Part shown: positions 1,369 through 7,171 of the stretch, piece by piece
Layout of the letters: each line of letters opens with the position of its first letter
Numbering within the stretch: the first letter of the stretch is position 1
From: a virus
Taxonomy: Duplodnaviria; Heunggongvirae; Uroviricota; Caudoviricetes
Strand: one strand, 5' to 3'
IMG/VR virus record: IMGVR_UViG_2671180577_000007
DNA: 7,323 nt
Made by a program: the position numbers and the translations under genes
Notes under the pieces: generated by a model
What the model was told of the DNA's origin: nothing
The model's database searches: none
The model's input: only the letters and a program-made list of their open reading frames with translations

Positions 1369-4770
<3,402 letters not shown>

Positions 4771-4837: not shown

Positions 4838-5437
4838 ATGCGTAAACTTTATGCCGCCATTTTGTCCGCAGCCATTTGTCTGGCCGTATCCGGTGCGTCT
4901 GCATGGGCGTCTGAACATCAGTCCACGCTGAGCGCGGGCTATCTTCATGCCTCGACGAACGTTTCCGGCAGCGATGATCTGAACGGGATTAACGTGAAAT
5001 ACCGTTATGAGTTTACGGACACGCTGGGAATGGTGACGTCATTCAGCTATGCAGGAGACAAGAATCGCCAGCTTACCCGTTACAGCGATACCCGCTGGCA
5101 TGAAGATTCCGTGCGTAACCGCTGGTTCAGCGTAATGGCGGGGCCGTCTGTGCGCGTGAATGAATGGTTCAGCGCGTATGCGATGGCGGGTGTGGCTTAC
5201 AGCCGTGTGTCGACTTTCTCCGGGGATTATCTCCGCGTAATTGACAACAAGGGGAAAACGCACGACGTGCTGACCGGAAGTGATGACGGTCGCCACAGCA
5301 ACACGTCTCTGGCGTGGGGAGCTGGCGTGCAGTTTAACCCGACCGAATCCGTGGCCATTGATATTGCTTATGAAGGCTCCGGCAGTGGTGACTGGCGCAC
5401 TGACGGTTTCATCGTGGGTGTCGGTTATAAATTCTGA
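4838..5437 (+). CDS. lom: Lom outer-membrane protein (Ail/Lom/PagC family 8-stranded beta-barrel), 199 aa
   Basis: ATG at 4838 with GAGAGG RBS; N-terminal signal peptide ([24 protein letters not shown]). The C-terminus [25 protein letters not shown] matches the Lom/Ail family and ends in the aromatic residue typical of outer-membrane barrels. Position immediately after J matches lambda lom. Confidence 0.9.
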
Positions 5438-5463: not shown

Positions 5464-5490
5464 AGCCCGCCGGTTCAGGCGGGCTTTTTT
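5464..5490 (+). terminator. Rho-independent terminator downstream of lom
   Basis: Perfect 8-bp GC-rich stem AGCCCGCC (5464-5471) / GGCGGGCT (5478-5485) with loop GGTTCA, followed immediately by a T6 run (5485-5490). Confidence 0.8.
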
Positions 5491-5501: not shown

Positions 5502-6815
5502 ATGGCAGTAAAGATTTCAGGTGTACTGAAAGACGGCACAGGAAAACCGGTACAGAACTGCACAATCCAGCTGAAAGCAAAACGTAACAGCACCACGGTG
5601 GTGGTGAACACGCTGGCCTCAGAAAATCCGGATGAAGCCGGGCGTTACAGCATGGACGTTGAGTACGGTCAGTACAGCGTTATTCTGTTGGTGGAAGGAT
5701 TCCCGCCGTCACATGCTGGGACCATCACCGTGTATGAAGATTCCCGACCCGGTACGCTGAATGATTTTCTCGGAGCCATGTCGGAGGATGACGTCCGGCC
5801 GGAGGCACTGCGCCGTTTTGAACTGATGGTGGAAGAGGTGGCGCGTCACGCTGAGGAGGCGAAGAAGAATGCCGGAGAGGCGGAGACGTCAGCGAGGAAT
5901 GCCGGCATATCAGCCAGTCAGGCAGAAGAGAGCGCTGCAAATGCTGACACTTCAGCAGGGGAGGCATCGGAGTCAGCCCGGCAGGCGGCAGAAAGTGCAG
6001 CCTCAGCAAAGCAGTCAGAGGAGGCGTCCTCGTCCTCGGCTTCTGCGGCCGCTCAAAAAGCCAGTGAGTCATCACAAAGTGCAGCAGAAGCTGAATTGTC
6101 AAGAAAGACGGCAGAAAGTGCAGCCGGTAATGCAGCCAGGGATGCAACGACCGCAACAGAAAAAGCCCGGGAGTCAGCAGAAAGCGCACAGTCAGCGGAA
6201 CAAAGCAGGATAGCGGCGGAAGAAGCCGTAAACAGAATCCCCACCGTGGTGGGACCTCCCGGGCCAAAGGGGGAACAGGGGCCCGCGGGTCCTCAGGGGC
6301 CGAAGGGTGATAAGGGAGAGCGCGGTGACACCGGCCCTGTCGGGGCAACCGGCGAACGGGGACCGGCAGGTGATGCTGGTCCGGCAGGCCCGCAGGGGCC
6401 GAAAGGTGACAGGGGAGAGCGGGGAGAGACCGGTCTGACGGGAAATGCAGGTCCACAGGGTCCAAAGGGAGATACCGGTGCGGCAGGCCCGGCAGGCCCA
6501 CAGGGACCGAAAGGAGAAACAGGTGCGGCTGGCCCGGTGGGGGCAACCGGACCTCAGGGACCGAAGGGCGACCCGGGGGAGACACAAATCCGTTTTCGTC
6601 TGGGGCCGGGAAACATTATTGAGACAAACAGCAATGGCTGGTTCCCGGATACAGATGGCGCACTCATCACCGGACTGACCTTTCTTGCCCCCAAAGATAC
6701 CACACGGGTTCAGGGTTTTTTTCAGCATTTGCAGGTCAGGTTTGGTGACGGGCCGTGGCAGGATGTTAAGGGGCTGGATGAAGTGGGCAGTGATACAGGC
6801 AGAACAGGAGAATGA
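5502..6815 (+). CDS. stf: Side-tail-fibre-like protein with lambda-Stf-type N-terminus, Ala/Ser/Glu-rich repeat region, collagen-like (Gly-X-Y)37 domain and a short distinct C-terminal domain (437 aa)
   Basis: ATG at 5502 gives [37 protein letters not shown]..., matching the lambda Stf N-terminus as recalled; the ORF track starts 2 codons earlier at GTG 5496. It lies 64 nt after lom, as in lambda. An A/S/E-rich low-complexity region spans ~5850-6240, the uninterrupted Gly-X-Y run spans 6252-6584, and a 76-aa C-terminal domain follows before TGA 6813-6815. Confidence 0.85.
6252..6584 (+). repeat. Collagen-like triple-helix repeat: 37 consecutive Gly-X-Y triplets with a recurring GPQGPKGD/E unit
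   Basis: Translation [111 protein letters not shown], with Gly at every third residue and no interruption. The unit GPQGPKG recurs at least four times, with matching near-repeats at DNA level. Confidence 0.9.
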
Positions 6816-6816
6816 C

Positions 6817-7086
6817 ATGAACATATTAAAAAAAATTATGCAGCGTCTGTGCGGTTGCGGAAAGCATGATGACCGTGAAGACGGGGAGTTACTTACAGCA
6901 CAGCTGCGACTGGGACCGGCAGACATTCTGGAGTCAGATGAGAATGGCATTATCCCGGAGCAGGACAGGGTAATCACGCAGGTGGTGATACTGGATGCGG
7001 ATAAAAAGCAGATACAGTGTGTGGTAAGACCGCTGCAAATCCTGCGTGCTGACGGGAGGTGGGAAAATATTGGCGGGATGAAGTAA
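6817..7086 (+). CDS. Small hypothetical protein (89 aa), translationally coupled to the fibre gene; function unknown (candidate fibre chaperone/assembly factor or cargo gene)
   Basis: ATG at 6817 lies 1 nt after the fibre stop, with AGGAG (6806-6810) 6 nt upstream. Product MNILKKIMQRLCGCGKHDDREDGELLTAQLRLGPADILESDENGIIPEQDRVITQVVILDADKKQIQCVVRPLQILRADGRWENIGGMK is acidic with no signal peptide. The ORF track extends it upstream to 6685, but that part overlaps the fibre gene out of frame and lacks an RBS. A terminator follows. Confidence 0.55.
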   Translation: MNILKKIMQRLCGCGKHDDREDGELLTAQLRLGPADILESDENGIIPEQDRVITQVVILDADKKQIQCVVRPLQILRADGRWENIGGMK

Positions 7087-7100
7087 CCCGACAGCTTCAC

Positions 7101-7126
7101 AAAACCGGAGTCCGGCTCCGGTTTTT
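7101..7126 (+). terminator. Rho-independent terminator after the small ORF
   Basis: AAAACCGGAG (7101-7110) / CTCCGGTTTT (7116-7125) form a 10-bp stem with loop TCCGG and a T5 run (7122-7126), 15 nt after the TAA at 7084-7086. The A-tract/T-tract symmetry suggests it could work in both directions. Confidence 0.65.
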
Positions 7127-7171
7127 GTTGTCATGTAAGGCAGATGTTTGTTAAAGCTATTTAAGTCTGGA

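Follow-up and report, generated by a model that had tools for sequence, protein, structure and literature searches.

A free-standing Phage_fiber_C protein encoded directly behind the collagen-like side tail-fibre gene of a lambdoid prophage, a candidate partner of the fibre knob

The DNA analysed here is a stretch of 7,323 nucleotides (nt) from IMG/VR virus record IMGVR_UViG_2671180577_000007 (the whole stretch is called the window below), and it represents the distal end of a lambdoid prophage tail module. Its plus strand carries a side tail-fibre gene of the EPclA type (5502..6815, ATG 5502 to TGA, 437 amino acids (aa)) and, behind it, a small gene for a free-standing PfC protein of 89 aa (6817..7086, ATG 6817-6819 to TAA 7084-7086), which is the subject of this study. 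From N- to C-terminus, the fibre consists of PfN (PF08400, E 1e-68), an Ala/Glu-rich coiled coil, collagen Gly-X-Y repeats (PF01391, E 4e-18), and a PfC knob (PF06820, E 2e-36). This order matches the EPclA architecture as defined by Ghosh et al. 2012 (PMC3368898). The knob at the fibre C-terminus, named PfC1 here, is encoded at 6588..6779 on the plus strand and matches PF06820 over positions 1-64 of 64. It comprises fibre residues 365-428 (numbered from 5496) and is followed by an 11-residue tail. It should be noted that the listing of open reading frames (ORFs) begins the fibre at GTG 5496 (439 aa), and that homologues and the published EPclA begin at ATG 5502 (MAVKISG, 437 aa).

The small protein contains a second, complete Phage_fiber_C domain, named PfC2, at residues 28-89 (6898..7083, plus strand). 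With membership set at the gathering score (25 bits) over the whole model, PF06820 covered these residues with 125.5 bits (E 1e-36, model 1-64 of 64). In addition, PHROG 576, which holds free-standing PfC proteins and is labelled 'tail fiber protein', matched the small protein from end to end (198.7 bits, E 2e-59, 1-89 of 89). PfC2 and PfC1 were 34% identical across 62 residues (E 2e-10), with RLGP as a common motif and with the same Gly and Trp in the C-terminal motif DG-x-W. PfC2 is a paralogue of the knob that ends the upstream fibre. An earlier note on this DNA, written from the letters alone, had called the ORF unrecognised and without a known motif. This description has to be withdrawn, because the gene family is already known and widely annotated (PF06820, PHROG 576) and public records already name the gene.

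These names disagree with each other. The genes ADN68460 of phi24B (gp59 in a 2026 preprint), atfT of AU5Stx1, and CPT_lambdah434imm21_024 of lambda h434 imm21 are the same gene with the same 89-aa core, and each lies directly after a PfC-ended fibre gene, as in the window. They are called 'hypothetical tail fiber protein ... RLGP motif', 'alternate tail fiber tip', and 'tail fiber assembly chaperone', respectively, and the Prokaryotic Genome Annotation Pipeline (PGAP) uses 'phage tail fiber C-terminal domain-containing protein'. The small gene bears at least four conflicting product names, and our literature searches found no functional study behind any of them. The known carriers differ from the window in shaft and virion type, for instance the lateral fibre of a podovirus versus the side fibre of a siphovirus in the window. 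The PfC domains of EPclA and EPclB (Ghosh et al. 2012, PMC3368898) belong to the same PF06820 family as PfC2, share with it the RLGP motif and further invariant positions such as the Gly and Trp of DG-x-W, and presumably have the same trimeric knob fold. However, PfC2 stands alone instead of capping a shaft, is only 34% identical, and is preceded by a unique piece with an N-terminal helix and a Cys-Gly-Cys. It is also more conserved and ends without the tail of 11 residues. Ghosh et al. 2012 (PMC3368898) make no mention of the free-standing gene.

The N-terminal 27 residues of the small protein (6817..6897, plus strand) have no fibre counterpart. They include an amphipathic helix at about residues 3-11, which is a low-confidence prediction of AlphaFold2 (AF2; hydrophobic moment 0.69), then C-G-C-G-K and an acidic linker. 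The divergent orthologue of locus L083 (54-62% identical) retains the pattern M-x-I-[LF]-K-K-I-x3-L-x-G-C-x-K and has lost the acidic linker. The small protein is soluble, and neither a signal peptide nor a lipobox or transmembrane segment was found in it (maximum 19-residue hydropathy 0.87). Furthermore, a lipoprotein reading of L-C-G-C, of the Cor or Llp type, was rejected because Cys12 and Cys14 are surrounded by charged residues and there is no hydrophobic core. A PDB sequence search gave nothing for the small protein.

The junction of the two genes is tight. The fibre stop TGA (6813..6815) lies one base ahead of the small-gene ATG, and an AGGAG ribosome-binding site (6806..6810) sits within the last fibre codons, 6 nt 5′ of ATG 6817. 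On the 3′ side, folding of 7087-7140 gave an 11-bp stem with a 3-nt loop at 7101-7125, followed by UUUUUGUUGU, and the whole looks like an intrinsic terminator with its U-run (7101..7130, plus strand; ΔG −21.2 kcal/mol). The hairpin had a z of −3.8, and 0 of 200 shuffled sequences folded equally well. A consensus terminator scan did not detect this hairpin 3′ of the small gene, probably due to the A/U-extended stem, which takes up part of the U-run. Equivalent hairpins lie 3′ of the orthologues in L083 and in Citrobacter rodentium (L086). The hairpin need not stop Q-antiterminated late transcription. The start 1 nt after the fibre stop with a good AGGAG, and the clean terminator behind the ORF, had both been described in the earlier note, and both hold, as does its view that the gene is real and tightly coupled to the fibre gene.

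The frame of the small gene is open for 138 nt 5′ of ATG 6817, back to 6679 (a 133-aa ORF with a TTG start), and some records, including two of the three phage records named above, place the start further upstream and annotate a product of about 130 aa. In the divergent orthologue of L083, a stop lies two codons 5′ of the ATG. Thus, we take the ATG as the true start. In addition, the sole sigma-70-like match in the region is at 6812-6839 (ATGACA, 16-nt spacer, AATTAT; 9/12 positions). It was disregarded because it overlaps the small-gene start codon, so that its transcript would be without a start, and it is probably a chance match.

To describe conservation, 83 copies of the small gene were compared, namely those of 80 IMG/VR loci, AU5Stx1, and the window, with one locus carrying two copies. 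An ATG followed by exactly 89 codons was found in 82 of the 83, and the junction string was identical in 79. The lone broken copy has a frameshift in an A-run at codons 4-7; in the window this is a slippage-prone A8 run (6832..6839, plus strand). Among 52 nucleotide alleles, synonymous diversity (pS) was 0.106 and nonsynonymous diversity (pN) 0.012, which gives a pN/pS of 0.11 for the small gene. By part, pN/pS was 0.066 for PfC2 and 0.22 for the N-terminal 27 codons. Taken with the junction, these data show that the 89-codon ORF is a genuine late gene, translationally coupled to the fibre gene. As a side observation, the C. rodentium copy (L086, about 5983-6000) is also frameshifted in the A-run, and most alleles have A7.

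The same data bear on the possibility that the small gene is a functionless, decaying leftover of an older fibre 3′ end. Prophage tail ends are full of fragments, such as the partial repeats at 4044-4193 of L021 and the lom::PfC2 and cII::PfC2 chimeras. Moreover, about 15 of 76 assessable fibre genes (L002-L081) are frameshifted, mostly in the collagen or coiled-coil repeats, and the adjoining small gene is intact in these cases. The proportion of broken genes is 15/76 for the fibre versus 1/83 for the small gene, a difference that is not significant per nucleotide (about 3.4 expected, P ~0.15). A relic is hard to reconcile with 82 of 83 intact copies, the low pN/pS, the conserved ribosome-binding site and ATG, the detection of the protein (see below), and an orthologue of 54-62% identity that retains the layout. 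We consider this explanation highly improbable, and the selection and proteomic data bring it close to refuted.

In the 77 loci common to both domains, PfC1 had a pN/pS of 0.22 and 31 distinct proteins, and PfC2 had 0.066 and 12 distinct proteins. This pattern of constraint agrees with an outward-facing fibre knob that varies and a partner that touches something constant. In the divergent pair of L083, the small proteins are more alike (54% by BLASTP, 62% in a MAFFT alignment) than the fibre knobs (40%).

Furthermore, we found that the small gene and PfC-ended fibres occur together. Of 50,697 phage records searched, 296 contained PfC1 and 296-297 contained PfC2, and the two sets were distributed identically over phage names. 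Similarly, PfC2 DNA was found in 698 and PfC1 DNA in 697 of 5,426 complete Escherichia coli genomes, at about 10-11 copies per genome. The small gene lies behind EPclA fibres with several N-terminal variants and collagen lengths, and behind the 635-649-aa lateral fibre (EPclB) of podoviral Shiga-toxin (Stx) phages. In L083, it follows a 212-aa non-collagen fibre, whose PfC1 is the one that is only 40% identical to that of the window; the junction there has AGGAGG at the same spacing, a 14-nt gene overlap, and a similar terminator. In L092, a similar small gene comes after a fibre of the PfN, coil, and Pf2-repeat type. The pair was present in the IMG/VR copies with upstream sequence, phi24B, AU5Stx1, lambda h434, L083, and L092. 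Therefore conservation beside homologous fibre genes, which the earlier note had left to be checked, is borne out across prophages, and the pairing holds across at least four fibre architectures, whatever the shaft or phage type.

The host distribution of the pair is narrow and comprises Escherichia (with E. albertii) and C. rodentium, where the fibre and small-gene pair has decayed. A metagenome scan added one divergent locus, and a contig scan with a PfC2-only alignment found only E. albertii and one probable contaminant. A 91%-identical small-gene copy also occurs on L087 (NZ_JPLE01000138.1, 725 bp), a contig labelled Xanthomonas pisi DSM 18956, and it is most likely E. coli contamination of the assembly. 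When either knob was used to search for homologous proteins, all matches were short or fragments, and many were frameshift junk.

Evidence at the protein level comes from phi24B, whose gene was confirmed by comparison to be a homologue of the small gene in the window. In a preprint on cryo-electron microscopy and proteomics of this phage, the spectra were searched against six-frame ORFs and hypothetical fusions of fibre and small protein (bioRxiv 10.64898/2026.04.10.717836). In sucrose-gradient-purified virions, the protein table implies 6 peptides and 11 spectra for the small protein. Two peptides specific to the small protein, VITQVVILDADKK and its C-terminal ADGTWENIGGMK, appear in the supplement with 3 spectra apiece; the fibre (gp61) has 2,559 spectra (bioRxiv 10.64898/2026.04.10.717836). 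The detection of this homologue agrees with translation from ATG 6817, which the earlier note had presumed. Calculated from the published table, the spectra per residue of the small protein amount to about 3% of those of the fibre. This is not the level of a stoichiometric virion protein, a result that is indicative only, since a single data set underlies it and the sample, from a related phage, had been stored. The low spectral level fits a mostly non-structural helper.

These proteomic data also bear on the possibility of a structural accessory tip, in which the small trimer would dock on the distal knob or elsewhere on the virion as a second or 'alternate' receptor-binding knob or adaptor, would be held loosely, and would be mostly lost on purification. 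The protein is homologous to the presumed receptor-binding knob, six distinct peptides were recovered from purified phi24B virions, the gene goes by the name of alternate tail fiber tip in AU5Stx1, and a docking peptide could be formed by the conserved N-terminal helix. Nevertheless, the per-residue level of about 3% is like that of proteins which the authors treat as contaminants, and the small protein is without a PfN-type virion-attachment domain. The lower pN/pS of PfC2, compared with that of the fibre knob, is the opposite of what is expected of a host-range determinant, and neither extra density nor a second lateral fibre type was reported for phi24B (bioRxiv 10.64898/2026.04.10.717836). 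A structural tip seems to us rather unlikely, but it is the main rival of the explanation that we prefer.

A further question is whether a programmed +1 frameshift near the fibre stop produces a tandem-knob fusion of fibre and PfC2, so that the small ORF would serve mainly as an extension. The small-gene frame is open well upstream of its ATG, the phi24B authors included fusion sequences in their search database, and one IMG/VR locus among L002-L081 (upstream TACAGGCAGAACAGAGAATGAC) has a 1-nt deletion in AGGAG through which both genes would be read in a single frame. The deletion may reflect a sequencing error, or else the locus encodes a natural tandem-knob fusion. However, there is no shift-prone codon before the fibre stop (GAA-UGA-C), and the divergent orthologue has its stop two codons before the ATG. 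No peptide across a frameshift-fusion junction was present in the phi24B data. The 88-spectrum 'unique fusion peptide' in those data is SVVVSGTLK (positions 2-10), which is the true N-terminus of the fibre and not a junction; it seems unique to the fusion entry because of the way in which the database entry was constructed. Meanwhile, the normal 11-residue C-terminal peptide of the fibre is abundant, with 47 spectra. There is, in our estimate, very little chance that such a fusion is the main product.

Taken together, each PfC-ended fibre adjoins a free-standing and better-conserved copy of its own knob, and this is the puzzle that a functional reading has to explain. It is known that the PfC of EPclA forms trimers by itself and can renucleate a melted collagen helix, that full-length EPclA alone in E. 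coli gives trimeric dumbbells as well as monomer and aggregate, and that PfC alone was expressed only as a thioredoxin fusion (PMC3368898). Our preferred explanation, which we put forward tentatively, is that the small protein may be a knob-mimicking assembly or partner protein of the fibre and not a stoichiometric part of the virion. An assembly role is favoured by the scarcity of the protein in virions, by its conservation, which exceeds that of the knob, and by its constant association with PfC-ended fibres. The suggestion of the earlier note that it could be a dedicated chaperone for the collagen-like fibre is plausible in this light, and one curated record uses the name tail fiber assembly chaperone, for which gene position was apparently the reason.

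The proposed mechanism would be as follows. The small protein would trimerise on its own, as its homology with the fibre knob suggests, and would then partner the distal knob of the fibre, most likely as a dedicated assembly or quality-control factor. Through coupled translation, it would be made beside the nascent fibre. Its putative PfC-like contacts would engage three fibre C-termini or the newly formed knob, and this engagement might favour correct registration of the knob from which the collagen and coiled-coil shaft zips up. Afterwards the small protein would be largely released, with only traces left on virions. It would be a functional analogue of lambda Tfa and not a homologue, and trimerisation would not strictly depend on it.

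Several observations weigh against this explanation. First, the small protein is dispensable for the trimerisation and refolding of recombinant EPclA and of its Col-PfC fragment in E. coli (PMC3368898). Thus, a chaperone role could be at most auxiliary and not obligatory. Second, the small protein showed no membership of Tfa or Caudo_TAP: a Pfam search at E up to 1 gave PF06820 only, and NCBIfam gave nothing. Third, the AF2 monomer of the small protein, from a 12-row alignment, was a poor model (predicted local distance difference test (pLDDT) 55, predicted template modelling score (pTM) 0.38). Fourth, the difference in selection between the two knobs is only suggestive by variant counts, with a nonsynonymous to synonymous ratio of 20:16 for PfC1 and 10:20 for PfC2 (Fisher p = 0.087). 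Fifth, the 1:1 co-occurrence is partly linkage in a single recombining phage pool of Escherichia and C. rodentium, and the shared module from the fibre gene end through the small gene is at least 94% nucleotide-identical in most copies. Finally, the phi24B sample had been stored for six months and mass spectrometry under-samples small proteins, which leaves room for a loosely bound structural role.

Comparison with known systems helps to place the small gene. It occupies the slot that tfa holds in lambda, as the earlier note had pointed out. As with lambda Tfa and other Caudo_TAP proteins (P2 G, Mu U, T4 gp38), a short gene adjoins the 3′ end of the fibre gene and is expressed together with it, and its product may help the distal end of the fibre to fold. 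Unlike them, it has no sequence relation to that group and a client that trimerises without the small protein, and it is less than half the size of lambda Tfa (about 194 aa). In addition, the small protein is homologous to its presumed client, whereas Tfa proteins are not. It is conceivable, although we hold it to be doubtful, that the gene represents a new helper type, namely a duplicated trimerisation knob that acts as a transient 'client-mimic' chaperone or cap, is unrelated to Tfa, gp38, and gp57A, and is needed for efficient display of the conserved collagen-like fibres of phages that carry Shiga toxin and effectors.

A second fibre-tip coding copy beside the fibre gene, the notion that underlies the name 'alternate tail fiber tip', is also a feature of the invertible G and C segments of Mu-, P1-, and P2-like phages. 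In contrast to the Mu Gin and P1 Cin systems, the copy in the window is a direct one and is separately translated from a start codon and ribosome-binding site that belong to it. We found no flanking inverted repeats of note and no recombinase within the window. A related idea is that PfC2 is a stored alternative tip, used through recombination, in which a deletion between short homologies swaps it onto the shaft. There are two plus-strand copies of a 14-nt microhomology, one in the collagen region (6356..6369, ACGGGGACCGGCAG, R-G-P-A) and one in the small gene (6909..6922, ACTGGGACCGGCAG, L-G-P-A). They form direct repeat D10, are 13/14 identical, and lie 553 nt apart. Since this spacing is 1 mod 3, a deletion between the copies would fuse the collagen in frame to PfC2. 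Natural chimeras are present in the databases. For instance, protein P0060 (2 samples) has GERGP joined to ADILESD, exactly the predicted collagen/PfC2 junction, on a contig that begins inside the gene, and P0128 has the N-half of PfC2 joined to the C-half of PfC1.

Against a stored tip, the small gene is translated separately from its own ribosome-binding site and ATG, and its conserved N-terminal extension is under purifying selection. There is no invertase and no inverted copy, and the DNA of PfC1 and PfC2 is too dissimilar for homologous exchange. The best-ranked matches from the complete E. coli genomes (5,426 in number) included no one-piece junction. When 1.84 billion representative proteins were searched exhaustively with phmmer, no protein with a PfC2-type sequence was longer than 121 aa, although the 50% clustering could conceal a chimeric fibre inside an EPclA cluster. 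We therefore regard storage of an alternative tip as very unlikely.

Frequent rearrangement at the tail ends of prophages is evident from the database proteins P0128, P0089, P0035, and P0010, single-copy chimeras in which the small gene or its knob is joined to the fibre knob, to lom, to a cII-like protein, and to part of a tape-measure protein.

The earlier note had also offered the view that the small gene is cargo riding on late transcription, for example a superinfection-exclusion or anti-defence factor. In such a case, a soluble knob mimic released at lysis might mask the fibre receptor on debris or nearby cells, or exclude superinfecting phages with the same fibre. The gene does lie at the boundary of the structural genes and the variable cargo region, and its product mimics the fibre knob and is scarce in virions. 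However, without an export signal or a transmembrane segment the protein cannot reach an outer-membrane receptor before lysis, and in the phage records and E. coli genomes surveyed the gene was never apart from a PfC-ended fibre. Its translation is coupled to that of the fibre gene instead of relying on an own promoter. The true cargo genes (nleG, nleB, nleC, and sopA-like genes) vary by locus and lie beyond the small-gene terminator. PADLOC gave no family at E up to 1 for the small protein, a search in which anti-defence functions are not covered. With the fibre homology added to these results, a cargo function appears quite unlikely, and this proposal of the earlier note did not hold up well.

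Among the loci compared, type III effector genes (nleG-like, nleB, nleC, and sopA/nleL-like) were seen 3′ of the small gene. At several loci, the effector genes are followed by an 85%-identical partial repeat of the small-gene 3′ end and terminator. These downstream features were seen at 3429-3959 and 4044-4193 of L021 (the second interval being a partial repeat of the small-gene 3′ end), at 3177-5210 of L091, and in L016, L022, L035, L038, L040, and L054. The effector cassettes look as if they had been inserted by duplicating the 3′ segment of the small gene.

Collagen-like fibres are carried by most Shiga-toxin phages and by about ten lambdoid prophages per genome of enterohaemorrhagic or enteropathogenic E. 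coli, which spread toxin and type III effector genes. The 2026 structure paper on phi24B openly asks what these fibres do, and its authors had no confident model for the fibre knob (bioRxiv 10.64898/2026.04.10.717836). If the small protein is a knob-mimicking helper, it would be a second and unrelated solution to fibre folding alongside the Tfa-type chaperones. A partner protein that accompanies every such fibre would also be a handle on fibre display and on the spread of these phages.

The remaining part of the window contains the preceding genes of the tail module, namely K (68-742), I (640-1311), J (1372-4770), and lom (4838-5437, Pfam Ail_Lom, E 6e-117). A terminator-like hairpin lies between lom and the fibre gene at 5464-5485, with an 8-bp GC-rich stem followed by TTTTTTG. 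Thus, the fibre gene and the small gene may need Q-antiterminated read-through or a separate start. On the minus strand, two long ORFs of 302 and 286 aa (6192-7100 and 5725-6585) are antisense to the collagen and knob coding region, and the GC-rich repeat seems to have produced them incidentally. Nevertheless, an equivalent antisense coding sequence (vb_24B_37c) is annotated in the record of phi24B, and a 2012 expression screen assigned clones there. Finally, a PDB sequence search with the fibre found only collagens and the N-terminal fragment 9e7m; in 9e7m/9mgh, a 94-residue chain named 'Tail fiber protein' matches fibre residues 1-93 (E 7e-52).

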